The notes under the pieces are model-generated. The model did not search any database, was not told the DNA's origin, and saw only the letters and a list, made by a program, of their open reading frames with translations. Of a DNA stretch of 58,567 nt, positions 1,561 through 58,012 are shown one piece after another. A program made the translations under genes and the position numbers. This DNA is from a phage: sequence record PZ445423.1; one strand, 5' to 3'. Position 1 is the first letter of the stretch. Every line of letters begins with the position of its first letter.

Positions 1561-1571
1561 CTGGAGGGTAT

Positions 1572-3068
1572 ATGGGTATTGATGCAACTCACCCGCTATA
1601 TGACAAGTGGAAGGACGCATGGGTTAAGTGCAACGACTGCTATGAGGGTGAAGATAAAATTAAGGAAGAAGGTGTTAAATATCTACCACCTTTAGCTTCC
1701 ATGATTATTGATGGGATGAATAATCCTAATGATTTGGGCTTTCAACGTTGGCTCGCTTATCGTCTGCGTGCTAACTTCCCTGACGATTATTCAAGTGCGG
1801 TTACAAACAATTTAGGTCTGCTACACCAGAAGCCTCCTACAATCCAGCTCCCACCTGAAATGGAATACATGCGGGAGCTGTGTACTGCGGACGGTGAAGA
1901 CATTATTGCTCTGCTACGTCGCATCAATGAAATGCAGTTAAAAAATGGACGTTTGGGCCTGCTGCTGGATTTGCCGAAAGGTGAGGATGTAAATAACAGA
2001 CCTTATATTAGCGTTTATGATGCTTTATCCATTATCAACTGGGGTGATGGTAAAGATGAATTGGGTAATATCAACTTGAACATGGTTGTTCTGGATGAAA
2101 GCGGTCCTGTACGTGTCAATCAGTTTGACTGGAAAGAAGAGAAGCGTTATCGCGTTCTACAATTAGGTCCAATGGACACAGATGAAGTAGCAGGTGGAGC
2201 GGTCTACTCCCAACATCTGTTTATTAACAATACCAATTATGATGAAGGGCAAATGATTGCTCCTTATTATAAAGGTAATACGCTGGATGAAATTCCTTTC
2301 CAGTTTGTCAATACAACAGATATTACCCCAGCACCGGAAGCGCCGCCATTGTTGGGTCTTGCTAACATTTGTCTAAGCATGTACCGAAGTGACGCGGATT
2401 ACCGCCAATGCTTGCATATGCAGGGTCAGGATACTTTAGTTGTTGTTGGTGGTTCCATGGAAAATGGAGATAAAGCCCCTCAGCGTATTGGTCCTGGTGC
2501 AGTCATTAACGTTTCTCAGGGGGGTGACGCTAAATATGTAGGTGTTAGCGGTGACGGTTTGTCCGAGCAACGTCTCGCACTGGCAGCGGATAAGCAGGAA
2601 GCCCAAATTAAAGCCGGGCAAATGGTAAACAATACCAAGAGTACGCAGGAATCAGGCGAAGCTATGAAAACGCGTATTGCTGCGCGTACAGCTAGTTTGA
2701 TTCGGATTGCGTATACTGGTGCGGCTGGTCTGGAAAACTTGCTGAAGGTTTGCGCTAAGTGGATGGGCGCTGATCCCGAGAAAGTTGTGGTCAAGCCTAA
2801 TCTTGAATTTACCAAGAGCATGTTTAACGGTCAGGACTTTGTTCAAATTATTACTGCACGCAACCTTAAGGCTCCGATCAGTTTGCAGTCTATTCATGGC
2901 TGGCTTGTTGATCAGGGCTTAACCACACTAAGCTTTGAAGAAGAAATGGCAATTCTTGAAGAAGAGCTTAAGAAGTGGCCTCTGCCCGATGATGCTAAAG
3001 CTGATTTAAACGCAGAGCAGCAAGTAAGCAAAGATCCTAAGGAAGACGACGCTTCCGATAAAGAATAG
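1572..3068 (+). CDS. portal protein (putative)
   Basis: 498-aa ORF directly after terL, with SD GGAGGG before the ATG and an acidic C-terminal tail; assigned by size and position. Confidence 0.55.
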   Translation: MGIDATHPLYDKWKDAWVKCNDCYEGEDKIKEEGVKYLPPLASMIIDGMNNPNDLGFQRWLAYRLRANFPDDYSSAVTNNLGLLHQKPPTIQLPPEMEYMRELCTADGEDIIALLRRINEMQLKNGRLGLLLDLPKGEDVNNRPYISVYDALSIINWGDGKDELGNINLNMVVLDESGPVRVNQFDWKEEKRYRVLQLGPMDTDEVAGGAVYSQHLFINNTNYDEGQMIAPYYKGNTLDEIPFQFVNTTDITPAPEAPPLLGLANICLSMYRSDADYRQCLHMQGQDTLVVVGGSMENGDKAPQRIGPGAVINVSQGGDAKYVGVSGDGLSEQRLALAADKQEAQIKAGQMVNNTKSTQESGEAMKTRIAARTASLIRIAYTGAAGLENLLKVCAKWMGADPEKVVVKPNLEFTKSMFNGQDFVQIITARNLKAPISLQSIHGWLVDQGLTTLSFEEEMAILEEELKKWPLPDDAKADLNAEQQVSKDPKEDDASDKE

Positions 3069-3163
3069 TTGCAACTTCCAAGTTGATTGGTTTATATTAA
3101 CGAACACGGGGCTGGGACGGCTCAGCTCCAAAAACGTCACACGGGTGACAACGGAGATAAGAA

Positions 3164-4036
3164 ATGAAAAAGAGTTCTGTAGCTATTAGTGTTGGTATGG
3201 CTTTAATTAATCCACGCGCTCGCGGTGAAGGTGATGTGGAACTGGAATACGAATATGCATCTGCGGAAGAGATCCCGGCAGAGTTTGCAACTCTTTACGC
3301 AGAGCAGGGCGGTAAATACGTTCTTGCAAAAGTTAAAGGTGTAGCCCCTGCTGATAGCGTTCGTCGTCTGGAAAGTGCATTAGCAAAAGAACGTAACGAC
3401 CATCGCCAGGTGAAGCAACAGATTAGCGCACTTGGGCGTCCGGTTGAAGAAGTCCTTGCGGACCTTGATCGTATCCCTCAACTGGAAGCTGCCGCTAACG
3501 GTAAAGGTACTCCGGAAGACATCGAAAAGATGGTTAAAGCCCGTCTTGCTCCGCTCGAGCGTCAATTGCAAACTGTAGCAGCTGAACGCGATTCCGTTAA
3601 GCAGGAAATTGAAGGCTACCGCACTCGCGAAACTAAAGCGAAGATTAAAGACGCAGTTATTGCTGCTGCATCCGGTGCTAAGCTGCGTCCGTCTGCTATC
3701 GAAGATGCGGTGACTTATGCACAGTTGCAAATGACCGTCGACGAGAACGGCAATGTGGTTACGAAAGATGGGGCTGGTGTAACTCCATACCTAACTCCAG
3801 CGGATTGGCTTAACGAGATCCTCCCGAAACGTCCTCACTGGGTTGAGGGTTCTGCTGGTGGCGGTGCGTCTGGTCCGGGCGCTGGCGGCCATCACGGTGA
3901 AGACCCATACAGTCACGACGGTTGGAACATCTCTAAGCAGATGAATCTCTGGAAAACTAATCAATCTTTAGCTAAACGCTTAGCTGAAAAGAATGGCGTA
4001 GACCCGCTGAAGCCTGTACGTCCTGCTAAGAAATAA
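3164..4036 (+). CDS. scaffolding protein (putative)
   Basis: 290-aa charged, coiled-coil-like ORF between portal and capsid genes, with a Gly-rich C-terminus; positional call. Confidence 0.45.
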   Translation: MKKSSVAISVGMALINPRARGEGDVELEYEYASAEEIPAEFATLYAEQGGKYVLAKVKGVAPADSVRRLESALAKERNDHRQVKQQISALGRPVEEVLADLDRIPQLEAAANGKGTPEDIEKMVKARLAPLERQLQTVAAERDSVKQEIEGYRTRETKAKIKDAVIAAASGAKLRPSAIEDAVTYAQLQMTVDENGNVVTKDGAGVTPYLTPADWLNEILPKRPHWVEGSAGGGASGPGAGGHHGEDPYSHDGWNISKQMNLWKTNQSLAKRLAEKNGVDPLKPVRPAKK

Positions 4037-4037
4037 G

Positions 4038-4083
4038 TTGACATCCCGACGTCCCTGATGTTAAGTTTCAACACATCAGGGAC
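4038..4083 (+). promoter_or_regulatory. TTGACA hexamer plus 11-bp perfect inverted repeat upstream of the capsid gene
   Basis: TTGACA at 4038-4043 and TTAAGT 17 nt downstream; stem GTCCCTGATGT (4051-4061) pairs with ACATCAGGGAC (4073-4083); no U-tract follows. Confidence 0.3.
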
Positions 4084-4158
4084 ACGGGTTCCTAAACAGC
4101 CTTCCACGGGGAAAGGCTACCAACAGTAAACAAATCAATCCTTTTCCTGGAGACAAGT

Positions 4159-5211
4159 ATGTCTAAATCTAAAATTATTCTGCCATTTGGTCGTGGTGAA
4201 ACTGACCTGACTCGTTTGAAGGATGTCATTGTCCCTGAGATCTTCACTGGTTATGTACAGACGCAGACCGCTAAACTTTCTGCTCTGATTCAATCCGGTG
4301 CGGTTGTAATGGACGAGCGTTTATCTGCTAACCTTGCTGGTGCAGGTCTGACTTTTAACGAGCCGTTCTATAACGACCTGAAAGATGAAGACGAAGATAT
4401 CGCTGTTGATAAAGGCGATCCGTCCAAACCGTCTAACATCACTACCGGATCTGAAGTTCAGGTTCGTATGAGTCGTTCAAAATCCTGGGGTTCTGCGGAT
4501 CTGGTATCAGCTTTGATTGGTAACGACCCAATGACCGCTATCGGTAACCGCGTGTCTACGTGGTGGGTCCGCCGTCTGCAAGCTGCATACATCGCAACCT
4601 GGAAAGGTGTATTTGCTAATGCGAAGAAATCACATAACGACGATTTGACTTTCGACATCTCTAGTTCTTCTTTTGTAAATAACCAGACCAACTTTACCGC
4701 GTCTAACTTCATCAACGCAACTGCAACGATGGGTGATGCTGCCCGCGGTCTGACTATGATTATGGTACACTCTACCGTTCGTAACCGTATGCGTCAGTTG
4801 AACCTGATCGACTTCATTCCAGATGCTCGCGGTGAAACTCAGTTTGAGTATTATCAGGGTCTGCGTATTATTGAAGACGACTCCATGCCACACGATCCGT
4901 CTGCTGGTGTGTTTGAAAGCTGGCTGTTCGGCCCGGGCGCAACTGCAATGGGTGCTGGATCACCGAAAGTTCCGACCGCTGTGGTGCGTGACGAAGCCGC
5001 TAACCAAGGCGCTGGTGAAGAAGTTCTTCACAACCGTGTTGAATGGATTCTGCATCCGGTTGGCCATGCTTGGGCTGCTGCTCAAACTGCTAAAGGTGGT
5101 CCGTCTAACGCTGCTACCACTAACAACCTGGCCCATGAAGATTCCTGGCGTCGTGCGTTCCCTGAGCGCAAGCAGCTTAAAGTTGCACGCCTGATCACTC
5201 GTGAGTATTAG
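4159..5211 (+). CDS. major capsid protein (putative)
   Basis: 350-aa ORF after the scaffold gene, SD GGAGA, followed by a strong terminator; positional call. Confidence 0.6.
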   Translation: MSKSKIILPFGRGETDLTRLKDVIVPEIFTGYVQTQTAKLSALIQSGAVVMDERLSANLAGAGLTFNEPFYNDLKDEDEDIAVDKGDPSKPSNITTGSEVQVRMSRSKSWGSADLVSALIGNDPMTAIGNRVSTWWVRRLQAAYIATWKGVFANAKKSHNDDLTFDISSSSFVNNQTNFTASNFINATATMGDAARGLTMIMVHSTVRNRMRQLNLIDFIPDARGETQFEYYQGLRIIEDDSMPHDPSAGVFESWLFGPGATAMGAGSPKVPTAVVRDEAANQGAGEEVLHNRVEWILHPVGHAWAAAQTAKGGPSNAATTNNLAHEDSWRRAFPERKQLKVARLITREY

Positions 5212-5251
5212 GGTTCCTAAGGCTTCACTCAACGCCGCGCTGTAGTATTTT

Positions 5252-54027: not shown

Positions 54028-54420
54028 ATGCTATTAGTCGTCACCGGAGGTCGAGATTTTAAGCATGTGGAGTATATTTACGCTCAATTGGATAAGCTGC
54101 ATATGCAAAGAAGGATAACCACACTTCGCCACGGTGACGCTGACGGTGTTGACCGGATTTGCGCACATTGGGCGGAGCGCAACGGTATTAAGACAGAAGC
54201 ATTCCCTGCCCCGTGGGGCAATCTTTCCTTACCAAATACCAAGATACGGTATAATGCCAAAGGTGCTTATAATGCACAAGCAGGCGCTTACCGCAACCAA
54301 TTAATGCTGGATACTGATCCTAAACCAGATCACGCTATTGTGTTTCCTGGCGGAGCTGGTACTATGGATATGTACAGACGGATTAAAGCATCCGGTATTC
54401 CTTACACTTTAGCGGGGTAA
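54028..54420 (+). CDS. SLOG/LOG-like Rossmann-fold protein (YspA/DprA-like)
   Basis: 130 aa; LLVVTGGRDF, GDADGVD and FPGGAGTMDM resemble the Gly-rich nucleotide-binding motifs of LOG/SLOG proteins (PGGxGT); SD GGAGA. Confidence 0.4.
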   Translation: MLLVVTGGRDFKHVEYIYAQLDKLHMQRRITTLRHGDADGVDRICAHWAERNGIKTEAFPAPWGNLSLPNTKIRYNAKGAYNAQAGAYRNQLMLDTDPKPDHAIVFPGGAGTMDMYRRIKASGIPYTLAG

Positions 54421-54423
54421 ATA

Positions 54424-54894
54424 ATGGCTGACGTTAAAACTATTGTTGATGCAATGGACGAGTCCAAAGACTGCCAACTGAAGAAGTCGTTTGAAGTAAA
54501 ACAGGTTACAGAGACTCAGTTAATAGCAAGATTCGCACGTCGTTGCGGCTTGGGGCGCGGGAAAGACTGGAACGGGCTTATTGTTATGCCCACATCACAG
54601 ATCCTTGTCTATGTCCGTAATGTTGTAGAAGATCTTTTGCGTCTTCAAATTGATATTGGTGACGTAGAAATTAACATGACCGCGAGCTCTACCATTGTGG
54701 TTAAATGGCAGTCGGGCGAGACACTGCGTTTGGAAGCGTGCCATTGTGCTAAGAGCTTGCACCACCTGCGAGGCTGTCATTACCAGTTCGTTGGGTTTGT
54801 ACATCCGCAAGGGTTAAGCGAGCGTACGGCGCTTGTAGCGCGTTTGCTGCTGCGTCCTTATAATAACGAGCCGGAAGTCATATACGAGGCATAA
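54424..54894 (+). CDS. hypothetical protein
   Basis: 156-aa ORF tightly following the upstream gene. Confidence 0.4.
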   Translation: MADVKTIVDAMDESKDCQLKKSFEVKQVTETQLIARFARRCGLGRGKDWNGLIVMPTSQILVYVRNVVEDLLRLQIDIGDVEINMTASSTIVVKWQSGETLRLEACHCAKSLHHLRGCHYQFVGFVHPQGLSERTALVARLLLRPYNNEPEVIYEA

Positions 54895-54895
54895 G

Positions 54896-55102
54896 ATGGA
54901 AACTCCATTAGCTAAACAAATGATAGAGCGTGCGGATCGGGACGGTTTACCGGAAGACCATGCTATGCGTCGAACTGCCCAGGTATTTGACGAAATTAGC
55001 GTTAAATACGCGATGGGTAAGAGCACGCCTAAAGGTTTATTGGGTGCTTGGGCTCGCGCTCGACGCTGCTGGTGTAACTATACCGGAGAACCTCTTGTAT
55101 GA
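54896..55102 (+). CDS. hypothetical protein
   Basis: 68-aa ORF. Confidence 0.35.
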   Translation: METPLAKQMIERADRDGLPEDHAMRRTAQVFDEISVKYAMGKSTPKGLLGAWARARRCWCNYTGEPLV

Positions 55103-55521
55103 TAAAACACGTTAAACAGCCAACGTTGAATACATGCGTTTCTGCGTGTTTGGCAATGATTCTTAATAAACCTGTTGAGAAGGTCATTGAGGAATTTCAT
55201 AGTCGTTATTATAACAACTGGGAAATCACTATCAGCGAATATTTGACTAAAAACAGCGTCATGCATCATTGTTCAGAAGGTGGTGGGCGTGAAACTTTGC
55301 ATATGGGAGGTTTGTTCCTATGCACGGTGCCAAGTCTTAATATTCCTGGCGCATTGCACCAGATTGTGATTGATATGACGGATCACAAGTTTATTGTGCA
55401 TGATCCAATTAAAGGATGGGAAGGTAAAAAGTTCTATGTTGGTCCGGATCAAGATCCTGAAGAGCCTGGAGCTTTTATCATTCATACTTGGGTCAAAGAC
55501 GTTGAAATCCTGCCTTATTAA
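55099..55521 (+). CDS. papain-like cysteine peptidase, C39-like
   Basis: 140 aa; N-terminal QPTLNTCVSACLAMIL matches the Q-x5-C-G-x-A-C-L-A-M-I catalytic-Cys signature of C39 peptidases; a downstream FIVHDP could supply the His. Confidence 0.5.
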   Translation: MIKHVKQPTLNTCVSACLAMILNKPVEKVIEEFHSRYYNNWEITISEYLTKNSVMHHCSEGGGRETLHMGGLFLCTVPSLNIPGALHQIVIDMTDHKFIVHDPIKGWEGKKFYVGPDQDPEEPGAFIIHTWVKDVEILPY

Positions 55522-55553
55522 TTTTCTTGCTATCACATAACCCTTCATTGTAT

Positions 55554-55583
55554 TGTGTACCCATCGAATAAGAGGGGTACACA
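55554..55583 (+). promoter_or_regulatory. 9-bp perfect inverted repeat enclosing the SD of the downstream gene
   Basis: TGTGTACCC-atcgaataagag-GGGTACACA ends one nt before the ATG at 55584; the SD AAGAGGGG lies in the loop and 3' arm. Confidence 0.35.
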
Positions 55584-55769
55584 ATGACCAAACTATACGC
55601 CGGATTGTTTTTATTTGCGACGTTGATGTTCGCTGGGCTTTATACCTATACAGTAGTCGAACAACCTTCCACGGTTATCCGAATCTTTGCAAGTACAGGG
55701 CTTTGCATCTGTCTTATTCTATTTGTTTTATGCATTGTTATTATCCAAGACCAAAGGAAAGTTAAATGA
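55584..55769 (+). CDS. small two-TM membrane protein
   Basis: 61 aa with two hydrophobic helices (LFLFATLMFAGLYTY and GLCICLILFVLCIVII). Confidence 0.4.
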   Translation: MTKLYAGLFLFATLMFAGLYTYTVVEQPSTVIRIFASTGLCICLILFVLCIVIIQDQRKVK

Positions 55770-56230
55770 CCACAATTGCGTTTGATGGAAAAGTATTAGC
55801 TGCGGACCGTGGCGTTATGCGCGGGGAAGCTGTGACTGCTTATAAGAAAGTTCATAGCGTGAATGGACATCGTGGACGGTTTTTACTGGGCTTGTGCGGC
55901 CTTACAGCATTTACCGATCAGGTGTTGCGTTATTTTAATAGCGCGGAAACTGTTAAGTTCCCTGATATTAAACTTTACAGCAAAGATGATGATTACGGGC
56001 AAACTTGCGGTCTTGCTGTCACTCCGGAAGGTACTTGCCATTTTATTTATAATGATGGTACTTTGAGCAAGCCCATGCTGGATGGATGGGGATCTGAGGG
56101 TAGCGGTTGTGTGTTTGCCGCTGGCGCATTAGCCGCTGGTGCAAGCGCAAGCGAAGCTATTGAGCTGGCAATTAAACACACCACATGTGCATTCCTGGGA
56201 GTTGATACAATATCATTTGAGGGTTTTTAA
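55766..56230 (+). CDS. HslV/proteasome-like Ntn-hydrolase peptidase (putative)
   Basis: 154 aa beginning MTTIAFDGKVLAADRG (cf. HslV MTTIVSVRRNG with Thr nucleophile) and GSEGSGCVFAAGA (cf. HslV GSGG region); SD AAAGGAAA. Confidence 0.45.
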   Translation: MTTIAFDGKVLAADRGVMRGEAVTAYKKVHSVNGHRGRFLLGLCGLTAFTDQVLRYFNSAETVKFPDIKLYSKDDDYGQTCGLAVTPEGTCHFIYNDGTLSKPMLDGWGSEGSGCVFAAGALAAGASASEAIELAIKHTTCAFLGVDTISFEGF

Positions 56231-56491
56231 ATGACTACATTCAGTCACCTGATCCCACCTGCTTATCATAGTAAGGTAGTTGACCACGGGACGCATGTTG
56301 TAATTGGTGGCGAAATCTTTATCACAGATAACGAGGAAATCGCCATTGCAATTATTGACAGCACTCAGCATGACTTTATGGTTATCCTGCAACACGAACC
56401 AGATAACTTCACTTTTTACTCCAGCTACGGGGTCGATAAAGGTGGAAAAAGCCTTGTTAGCTGGTACATTAGCGAGTGGTTTGACGGGTAA
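56231..56491 (+). CDS. hypothetical protein
   Basis: 86-aa ORF directly after the upstream stop. Confidence 0.4.
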   Translation: MTTFSHLIPPAYHSKVVDHGTHVVIGGEIFITDNEEIAIAIIDSTQHDFMVILQHEPDNFTFYSSYGVDKGGKSLVSWYISEWFDG

Positions 56492-56573
56492 TCTCCTTAG
56501 ATCAATTCTCCTTGCGCCGTATCAAGTTTCTCTGTTACCCTTGAGTGGTTCATGTCAAGCGGAGGAACTCGAT

Positions 56574-57011
56574 ATGGCACTTCAACCTCGTGGTATTCGT
56601 AATAACAATCCAGGCAATATTCGCTGGGGTGATAATTGGCAGGGCTTAGTTCCTGCTGATAAGCGAACCGATAAATCTTTTGCGCAATTCACGCAACCGA
56701 TTTACGGCATTCGTGCACTAGCGAAAATCCTGACAAACTACACCAAACGTGAAGGCTTACCCAATGTGGGTAAGAAAAACATCGACACTGTACGTGAAAT
56801 CATCGCTCGCTGGGCACCGCCTAACGAAAACGATACGGAAGCGTATATTCGCTCTGTTGCCAAAGCAATTGGTGTTCAACCTAACGATCCAATTAATGTC
56901 TTCGACAAGGCAATTATGTCAGGATTGGTGAAAGCAATCATTCGTCATGAAAATGGCATGATGCCCTATACCGACGACGTAATTAACCGCGCTATTGCAA
57001 TGGTACTTTAA
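56574..57011 (+). CDS. putative endolysin / cell-wall hydrolase (family unresolved)
   Basis: 145 aa from the ATG at 56574 (SD GGAGGAA), immediately upstream of the holin/spanin genes; contains RGIRNNNPGNIRWG. Confidence 0.45.
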   Translation: MALQPRGIRNNNPGNIRWGDNWQGLVPADKRTDKSFAQFTQPIYGIRALAKILTNYTKREGLPNVGKKNIDTVREIIARWAPPNENDTEAYIRSVAKAIGVQPNDPINVFDKAIMSGLVKAIIRHENGMMPYTDDVINRAIAMVL

Positions 57012-57047: not shown

Positions 57048-57392
57048 ATGTTCAATTCACCCAACGAACATTGGGCAGTTCTAGCGGGGTTTGCGTTTAT
57101 CTCCCTCATTGGGGGAGCTCTCGGTTATGTCATGCGTACAATAGACGCTGGTAAGAAAGTACGGGCAAGCATTGCATTTCTTGAAGGCTTATCCGCCGCT
57201 TTCTTTGGCGTTATAATGTATGCGATCTACAGGGAGTTTAACATCAGCCTTTGGTTCGCTTTTGGCCTTGCTGGCCTATTTGCTTGGGCAGGTTCACGTG
57301 CTACGCTAAAAGCCCTAACGTCGCTTATAGCTTCACGGACAGGGATCAAACTCGATTCAGGGGACTGCAAACATGAAAACGATTCTAAATAA
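57048..57392 (+). CDS. holin (putative, 3 TM)
   Basis: 114 aa with three hydrophobic helices and a charged C-terminus; between the endolysin candidate and the spanins. Confidence 0.55.
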   Translation: MFNSPNEHWAVLAGFAFISLIGGALGYVMRTIDAGKKVRASIAFLEGLSAAFFGVIMYAIYREFNISLWFAFGLAGLFAWAGSRATLKALTSLIASRTGIKLDSGDCKHENDSK

Positions 57393-57849
57393 CTTCTTCG
57401 GTTTTATAAAAACTAAACCGCGTCTGTTTATCGAGTATTTGATGATCGGCGCGGTTGTGTTTTTATGCGGGGTGGCTGCATACTTGTGGTCACAGAACGA
57501 GCTCAGCAAAACTAATTTAAATCATGCTGAGCAAAGACTAACCGTTGTAGAACGGGACAATGCAAAGCTGGGCGAAGCTGTTGTATTTCTTGCATCCCAA
57601 CGGGAGAAGGATACTGAATCCTATCGAAAATTGGCTTCAGCGATTGAAAGTGAGCAACATAACCACAGGTTGCTTCAGGACAAATTAAAAGCACTGGAGA
57701 AAAGCAATGCCGACGTCAAAGCTTATCTTAATGAGCGTGTTCCTGATGATTTGCGCAGGCTGCTCGACGGAGATACAACCTCCACCACAGTCACAGATAG
57801 TCAAGATAAAACTTCCGGCTCATCTGTTGGTAGAATGTCGGGAAGTTGA
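57373..57849 (+). CDS. inner-membrane spanin (Rz-like)
   Basis: 158 aa; N-terminal TM helix then a coiled-coil-like periplasmic domain; contains the o-spanin gene in another frame. Confidence 0.6.
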   Translation: MKTILNNFFGFIKTKPRLFIEYLMIGAVVFLCGVAAYLWSQNELSKTNLNHAEQRLTVVERDNAKLGEAVVFLASQREKDTESYRKLASAIESEQHNHRLLQDKLKALEKSNADVKAYLNERVPDDLRRLLDGDTTSTTVTDSQDKTSGSSVGRMSGS

Positions 57850-58012
57850 TAAATATCCTTTGGTTTATACAAGGGACATTATCCAACGTTTGCAGGATAC
57901 AGAAACAGCTCTGACTGAATGTAAACTGAGGGTTAAGGAAATCATACGCTATGAAGCTGAAAATGTTTCGCTTGATTTTGTAGGATCAAGCAATTATATT
58001 CAGCCTAAATAG
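57707..58012 (+). CDS. outer-membrane spanin lipoprotein (Rz1-like), embedded in the i-spanin gene
   Basis: 101 aa; signal peptide MPTSKLILMSVFLMICAGC with lipobox-like Cys, then a Pro-rich stretch EIQPPPQ. Confidence 0.65.
   Translation: MPTSKLILMSVFLMICAGCSTEIQPPPQSQIVKIKLPAHLLVECREVDKYPLVYTRDIIQRLQDTETALTECKLRVKEIIRYEAENVSLDFVGSSNYIQPK

Follow-up and report, generated by a model that had tools for sequence, protein, structure and literature searches.

Why should a phage carry two peptidase-like genes of unrelated fold directly ahead of its lysis genes, and do their products act together? The question arises in phage sequence record PZ445423.1, a stretch of 58,567 nucleotides that was analysed at its full length and is referred to here as the window. 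An earlier note, made from the letters alone, had described an early-gene cluster encoding a C39-like cysteine peptidase, a small membrane protein and an HslV/proteasome-like hydrolase, and had suggested that the two peptidases process or destroy a host or phage target, in anti-defence or host takeover. The three open reading frames (ORFs) of 140, 61 and 154 codons that it had placed on the + strand, at 55099–55521, 55584–55769 and 55766–56230, were confirmed there together with the motifs it had quoted. With moderate confidence, we read the locus as two separate accessory peptidases, a C39-like endopeptidase and a hydrolase of the phage proteasome homolog (PPH) type, with a membrane protein gene inserted between them.

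The first of the two peptidase genes encodes 140 residues (55099–55521, + strand), and its product matches phrog_4049 with an E-value of 2.3e-57, residues 1–139 aligning with positions 2–140 of a profile of 145. PHROG gives this family no function, and its members have so far been labelled “hypothetical protein”. Residues 7–22 of the protein read QPTLNTCVSACLAMIL and contain the signature Q-x5-C-x3-C-L-A-M, which is of the C39 type and places a second cysteine (C17) four residues past Cys13. The predicted catalytic set consists of Gln7, which would contribute to the oxyanion hole, Cys13, His87 and Asp102, spaced by 6 residues from Gln to Cys, 74 from Cys to His and 15 from His to Asp. In an alignment of 108 relatives that are 26–64% identical to the query, Gln7, His87 and the pair Asp102-Pro103 are present in every sequence and Cys13 in 107 of them. 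The catalytic His is preceded by a VPSLN motif that is invariant in the family.

The AlphaFold2 model of this protein, built with 13 homologues, has a pLDDT of 92.4. In the model Cys13 lies at the N-terminus of a helix (residues 13–22), His87 lies in a strand (86–92) and the Asp is located just past the next strand; these positions fit the papain topology. The closest structures are the C39 domains of PCAT1, ComA and LahT, with PCAT1 as the top Foldseek match. Thus, by its predicted fold and active site, the 140-residue protein is a C39-like peptidase that stands alone, as the earlier note had proposed. Judging from its sequence and setting, it departs from C39 proper on two counts, in that it falls short of the Pfam threshold, as taken up below, and is not tied to an ABC exporter. 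In the two stretches of a near-identical phage that were read, the annotation shows no ABC transporter. The protein has no hydrophobic segments, and searches of NCBIfam and PADLOC returned nothing relevant.

The family proved to be large. A search with the C39-like profile in a library of 1.84 billion cluster representatives, clustered at 50% identity, returned 1,077 representatives at E ≤ 1e-3, which is a lower bound on the number of clusters; nearly all of them are stand-alone proteins of ∼140 residues. Members of phrog_4049 are found in Queuovirinae, Ackermannviridae, Vequintavirinae and Stephanstirmvirinae as well as in Vibrio and Pseudomonas phages. The C39-like assignment turns this family of hypothetical proteins into a new stand-alone branch of a known kind of peptidase. 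We infer that the 140-residue protein would be a soluble relative of the double-glycine (C39) leader peptidases that has lost the ABC-transporter context, and that it would act as a site-specific endopeptidase in the infected cytoplasm, with a single protein or a small number of them cleaved behind a Gly-Gly-type motif. A host target would be more probable than one encoded by the phage, and the enzyme would then serve host takeover or counter-defence.

The second peptidase gene (55766–56230, + strand) encodes 154 residues that begin with MTTIAFDG and include GSEGSG at residues 109–114. The protein matches phrog_1040, “peptidase HslV family”, at 2e-31. Its predicted catalytic residues are Thr2 (Thr1 once Met is removed), Asp14, Lys28, Gly45 and Gly112-Ser113-Gly114. 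Thr2, Asp14, Gly45, Gly112 and Gly114 do not vary among 18 aligned relatives, Lys28 is kept in at least 90% of them, and the nucleophilic Thr directly follows Met1 in all 18. A profile built from the 18 homologues recovered HslV from the PDB at 9e-9, and also BPH and 20S beta subunits; in this comparison the GSG of the phage protein is aligned to the GSGG of HslV. The AlphaFold2 model (pLDDT 95.8) has a single helix, residues 47–58, between the sheets where HslV has two. HslV is likewise the top Foldseek match, followed by archaeal and eukaryotic 20S beta subunits and BPH.

From the profile and the model, the 154-residue protein is identified as a Thr1 N-terminal-nucleophile hydrolase of the HslV/proteasome-beta fold that lacks helix H2. 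The absence of this helix matches it to PPH, described in 2021. This part of the earlier note was correct and was already known: in GenBank the gene goes by “peptidase HslV family” or “putative protease” in CAjan, Seurat, the KS_ phages and Dru_SM1, and the protein fits the published PPH family. Removal of Met1 would expose the Thr nucleophile and yield an active hydrolase, one that would be dispensable in the laboratory. No HslU-like ATPase or AAA+ unfoldase is annotated in the regions read of the near-identical phage.

Do the two enzymes belong together? The order C39-like gene followed by PPH gene on the same strand is found in Seuratvirus, in Nonagvirus (34–35% protein identity) and in Craquatrovirus (27–39%), and in Seuratvirus as well as in Nonagvirus JenK1 and Craquatrovirus PSTCR7 the lysis genes follow shortly after the pair. 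In PSTCR7 the two genes overlap by 4 bp. Among IMG/VR loci centred on the C39-like gene, a PPH gene is located downstream on the same strand in 17 of 75, of which 11 have the two genes adjacent and six, all on lambdoid-like contigs, have them 3–6 kb apart; the remaining 58 have no PPH gene within 8 kb. From the other side the association is rarer still. A C39-like gene is present in two of 80 loci centred on PPH and absent from 78, in a sample that is biased since it consists of the best-scoring PPH matches obtained via an N-terminal pattern. A scan of a genome collection for bacterial copies, made with a small alignment, gave two loci, neither with PPH within 10 kb. Adjacency is confined to Queuovirinae and Craquatrovirus.

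These counts rule out an obligate pairing of the two peptidases. They also bear on the idea that the enzymes form one two-protease module, in which, for example, the C39-like enzyme makes a specific first cut and PPH breaks down what results, or one of the two is processed by its partner; the membrane protein would be an optional third part. We regard such a module as unlikely. It would account for the conserved same-strand order in three genera, for the adjacent and nearby pairs among the contigs and for the overlap in PSTCR7, but most members of each family occur alone, and the three genera share their genome architecture, so that the synteny can be inherited rather than selected. Moreover, Seuratvirus and JenK1 each have an unrelated gene interposed between the two, the peptidase genes gave opposite outcomes in the knockout library described below (the C39-like deletion was not recovered, the PPH deletion is viable), and the PPH protein starts with Met-Thr and so has no propeptide to process. 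From these comparisons we conclude that the two peptidase genes are probably accessory genes, independent of each other, that keep company in a single group of related siphoviruses. The data allow for a functional link between them but do not demand it. Joint action of the two enzymes is unproven; most relatives of each occur without the other.

The neighbourhoods of the two families outside this group differ. On lambdoid contigs the C39-like gene is located in the nin region, where it adjoins NinG (28 loci), NinB (21) and an IstB/DnaC-like loader (15). Other neighbours are DNA methylases, a pentapeptide protein, Mom, PAPS reductase and a Lar-domain gene, and in Stephanstirmvirinae, Vequintavirinae, Samunavirus and Enhodamvirus the gene lies among small early genes. 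We count its presence in early accessory regions of relatives, beside NinB, NinG, DnaC, methylases and Mom, in favour of a separate accessory peptidase. PPH relatives outside Queuovirinae lie mostly beside the small and large terminase, portal and head genes, and a role of PPH tied to packaging or head assembly is a possibility suggested by this gene order.

The gene between the two peptidases (55584–55769, + strand) encodes a small protein of 61 residues with two hydrophobic segments on the Kyte-Doolittle scale, in line with the small membrane protein that the earlier note had described. It matches phrog_22841 at 4.6e-45, a family that is found in Seuratvirus only; the protein is therefore no conserved part of the peptidase pair. 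At the same position PSTCR7 has no gene and JenK1 has an unrelated soluble gene of 117 codons. We accordingly rejected the membrane protein as a conserved third component, and the comparison of the three loci identifies its gene as an apparent lineage-specific insertion between the peptidase genes.

The start of the 61-residue ORF is covered by a predicted RNA hairpin on the + strand (55551–55586). Its stem of 12 bp folds with −20.1 kcal/mol (z −3.35), and one of 200 shuffled sequences folds equally well. The hairpin covers the Shine-Dalgarno sequence of the ORF, and thus its ribosome-binding site, and pairs the first base of the AUG; the same sequence is also present in the primer text of phage DruSM1. 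According to this fold, the hairpin may regulate the translation of the membrane protein, which is possibly toxic.

Experimental evidence comes from DruSM1, the phage whose record is named Dru_SM1. Ojima et al. (bioRxiv 10.1101/2024.04.14.589459) attempted the deletion of each DruSM1 ORF and challenged the resulting mutants with a library of defence systems. DruSM1 is 97.5% identical to the window in this region, and we mapped Table S1 of that study onto the window via product names and primer sequences. Deletion of ORF86, which corresponds to the C39-like peptidase gene at 55099–55521, was not obtained, nor was deletion of ORF87, the membrane protein gene at 55584–55769, and neither has a defence entry. 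Deletion of ORF88, the HslV-like gene at 55766–56230, was obtained, with no defence phenotype listed. The three ORFs immediately upstream, ORF83 (54028–54420), ORF84 (54424–54894) and ORF85 (54896–55102), were all deleted, and the mutants became sensitive to AVAST type 3, to AVAST type 3 and qatABCD, and to qatABCD, respectively. The interval 54028–55102 is therefore an experimentally supported counter-defence island. A paper on KpAvs2 that deals with Seuratvirus has nothing on the genes studied here.

Does the C39-like gene extend this island? It could do so by cleaving a host immune protein or by stripping a Gly-Gly-linked ubiquitin-like modifier off phage proteins, and the three adjoining genes with counter-defence phenotypes, like the distant relatives beside DNA methylases, Mom, PAPS reductase and a Lar-domain gene, would be consistent with this. 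Still, its deletion was not recovered in a K-12 derivative, its closest structures are leader peptidases and not deubiquitinases, and no defence system has been linked to it; we consider a counter-defence role possible but rather doubtful. The anti-defence role that the earlier note had suggested, next to host takeover, is unproven: the HslV-like gene can be deleted without a change in defence, and deletions of the C39-like gene and the membrane protein gene were not recovered, unlike what is expected of a dispensable anti-defence gene.

The position of the locus in the genome bears on two further points, a role in lysis and the time of expression. The region 54900–56500 is 96–98% identical to Escherichia phages Greed, KS_A3, KS_S4, Dru_SM1 and SA80RD, the value for Greed and KS_A3 being ∼98%, and ∼98% identical to CAjan and Seurat over 87% of its length. 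On the strength of these identities the window is classed as a Seuratvirus genome of the subfamily Queuovirinae. Terminase and virion genes occupy the + strand from 1 to ∼22.5 kb, replication genes and 7-deazaguanine modification genes the − strand at ∼24.5–50.4 kb, and a block of small genes the + strand from ∼51 kb. This last block ends in a lysis cassette, with the endolysin gene extending to 57011, the holin gene at 57048–57392 and the spanin genes at 57373–58012; the cassette continues into the terminase. The peptidase genes form the end of the small genes and stand directly before the endolysin-holin-spanin cassette. Neither is core virion or replication machinery, which bears out the earlier note on this point.

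The C39-like gene lies ∼1 kb upstream of this cassette, and in DruSM1 the entry “ORF89&90 endolysin” is deletable and ORF86 is not. Both observations would suit an accessory of lysis that the holin releases and that acts on peptidoglycan as an endopeptidase or amidase. Against this, the family is found away from lysis genes outside Queuovirinae (in nin regions, in a topoisomerase operon and in early clusters of small genes), the protein has no cell-wall-binding domain, and its signature is of the C39 type and not that of CHAP or NlpC/P60. An auxiliary lysis function thus appears very unlikely, and we return to a C39-like endopeptidase that would act in the cytoplasm.

As for timing, the earlier note had called the cluster early. 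The genes are the last before the lysis cassette, a scan for consensus promoters and terminators gave counts not above the shuffled expectation, and “early” is an inference. C39-like relatives are located in lambdoid nin regions, which are delayed early, and HslV-like relatives mostly beside terminase and head genes. The position of the locus, past the divergent region at ∼50.4–51.3 kb and before the lysis and packaging genes, is compatible with early or middle transcription that proceeds towards the late genes. Taken together, the earlier interpretation is supported in part: the folds hold, as does the accessory nature of the genes, while early expression, concerted action and a part in anti-defence remain unproven.

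Several observations weigh against two independent accessory peptidases of which one acts on the host. The Pfam Peptidase_C39 model (PF03412) matches the 140-residue protein in residues 3–24 only, with an E-value of 0.058 and 13.7 bits against a cut-off of 22; among the 108 relatives, eight have an E-value below 0.01, the best being 2.4e-6. Sequence searches of the PDB with the C39-like family (phmmer and two profile searches) returned no C39 chain, and the Pfam Proteasome model scores the 154-residue protein at 15.6 bits against a cut-off of 22.4. Because the Pfam matches lie below the curated thresholds, the C39 and HslV assignments rest on the fold and the conserved catalytic residues. The conserved order of the two genes and the 4-bp overlap in some genomes leave room for a functional link. 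That no deletion of the C39-like gene was recovered in a K-12 host is hard to reconcile with pure counter-defence, and could mean instead that its substrate is a phage protein. The failures at ORF86 and ORF87 may also be polar or technical, because Table S1 lists deletions of the DNA polymerase and tape-measure genes as obtained; the processivity factor and “ORF89&90 endolysin” are listed likewise (10.1101/2024.04.14.589459). Such deletions would not be expected to succeed, so the library is noisy in its calls of essentiality and the two failures can bear limited weight.

Sub-threshold Pfam scores, together with the HslV-like deletion that has no phenotype, would also be expected if one or both proteins were catalytically dead scaffolds or binders that keep a peptidase fold. 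This we hold to be the least probable of the explanations considered here, since the catalytic residues hardly vary even among very divergent relatives, and pseudoenzymes typically lose such residues; the Thr that directly follows Met1 throughout the aligned PPH relatives argues in the same direction. The conservation of both active sites is more consistent with the two separate, active peptidases that we favour.

The peptidase genes are part of a tightly packed run of genes on the + strand. It includes a YspA/SLOG protein (54028–54420; Pfam PF10686 at 9.6e-18) and ORFs of 156 codons (54424–54894) and 68 codons (54896–55102), all three with PHROG matches; these are the genes that correspond to ORF83–85 of DruSM1. 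The 68-codon ORF overlaps the start of the C39-like gene at 55099 (ATGA), the 61-codon ORF overlaps the start of the 154-codon ORF at 55766 (ATGA), and the stop codon of the latter abuts the next ATG in a TAA-ATG junction at 56230/56231. In view of the PHROG matches and of the 1,077 cluster representatives found with the C39-like profile, the 140-, 61- and 154-codon ORFs are evidently real genes and not chance ORFs.

The same run ends with an ORF of 86 codons (56231–56491, + strand), the last before the lysis cassette. Its product matches phrog_23528, a family found in Seuratvirus only, starts with MTTF and contains the string ...VVIGG-E...; beyond PHROG its family matches amount to one match in NCBIfam at chance level. 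We considered this string as a double-glycine leader and rejected it, since the family occurs in Seuratvirus alone and the sequence on either side does not look like a leader. The endolysin ORF was called mechanically at 56304–57011 on the + strand, from a TTG start that lies inside the 86-codon ORF. Its true start is likely the ATG at 56575, which follows GGAGG and gives a protein of 145 residues, as in the CAjan annotation; the DruSM1 endolysin annotation is longer, at 645 bp. The spanin genes appear to be overlapped, with one at 57373–57849 (Rz-like, 158 residues) and the other in a different frame of the + strand at 57707–58012, the product of which has a lipoprotein-like N-terminus that contains a Cys.

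Only a few phage-encoded proteases target host proteins, and they are mechanistically informative. The large phrog_4049 family, with its near-invariant C39 catalytic set and a deletion that was not recovered, offers a well-defined target for substrate discovery, and its proteins can be named “stand-alone C39-like cysteine peptidase” in annotation. For the second enzyme, a knockout that is viable and shows no phenotype against the defence-system library narrows the role of PPH. The finding would gain in interest if any specific host substrate, or the topoisomerase lead described below, were confirmed.

How do the two proteins compare with known systems? The 140-residue protein shares the Q-x5-C-x3-C-L-A-M, His and Asp-Pro motifs with the C39 domains of PCAT1, ComA and LahT150 (PF03412). 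In contrast to these it is free-standing, with no ABC transporter and no evident leader-peptide substrate nearby, it scores below the Pfam threshold, and its family carries a VPSLN motif of its own before the catalytic His.

A precedent for a C39-type enzyme that works alone is given by two bacterial toxins. Cpe1, an effector of type VI secretion and contact-dependent inhibition systems (T6SS/CDI), and StbD-CT, a CdiA-like toxin, are C39-type peptidases that cleave GyrB/ParE at the Gly-Gly of HAGGK (PMC12136450; bioRxiv 10.64898/2026.05.07.723447). Both are small C39-type domains that act alone in the cytoplasm on specific folded proteins, as we propose for the 140-residue protein. C183 and C187 of StbD-CT match C13 and C17 of the phage protein, and its C183, H258 and D275 have spacings of 75 and 17, against 74 and 15 in the phage protein. 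Unlike the toxins, the latter has neither a delivery domain nor an immunity gene. A sequence relationship of the family to Cpe1 or StbD-CT was not detectable with HMMER, and the longer members of the phrog_4049 family, which we considered as a sequence bridge to these toxins, turned out to be other fusions and not toxin architectures.

The comparison raises the idea that phrog_4049 peptidases, like Cpe1 and StbD-CT, cut GyrB and ParE, the ATPase subunits of the host type II topoisomerases, at the Gly-Gly of HAGGK, a motif that binds ATP, and so shut down the topology of the host chromosome. The genes for the two topoisomerase II subunits flank the phrog_4049 gene, which overlaps both, in the Kuttervirus Salmonella phage SeF6a (locus 1565–5251) and likewise in each of the six Ackermannviridae contigs that were retrieved, and the Kuttervirus topoisomerase has YAGSNF where GyrB has HAGGKF. 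If the idea is right, the phage's own topoisomerase II, which bears AGSN, would replace the destroyed host enzymes. By analogy with the toxins this is conceivable, and we rate it as quite improbable, because the arrangement is known from a single lineage, the replication and small-gene regions read of the near-identical phage show no Seuratvirus topoisomerase in their annotation, and lambdoid phages depend on host gyrase.

For the 154-residue protein the known relatives are closer. With HslV (ClpQ) it shares an identical MTTI N-terminus, the profile match at 9e-9, the aligned GSG and the top position among the Foldseek matches; it is shorter than HslV (154 against ∼175 residues), it lacks H2 and its Pfam Proteasome score is sub-threshold. 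PPH, with WP_042125023.1 as its published representative, was described in 2021 as a compact protein of ∼140 residues from tailed phages of Proteobacteria, with no propeptide or insertions, with H2 missing and with the catalytic triad kept. Compared with that description, the protein fits PPH in having no propeptide, in having equivalents of Thr1, Asp17, Lys33 and Gly47, and in the absence of H2. This would place it with what is regarded as the first truly viral protein of the proteasome family.

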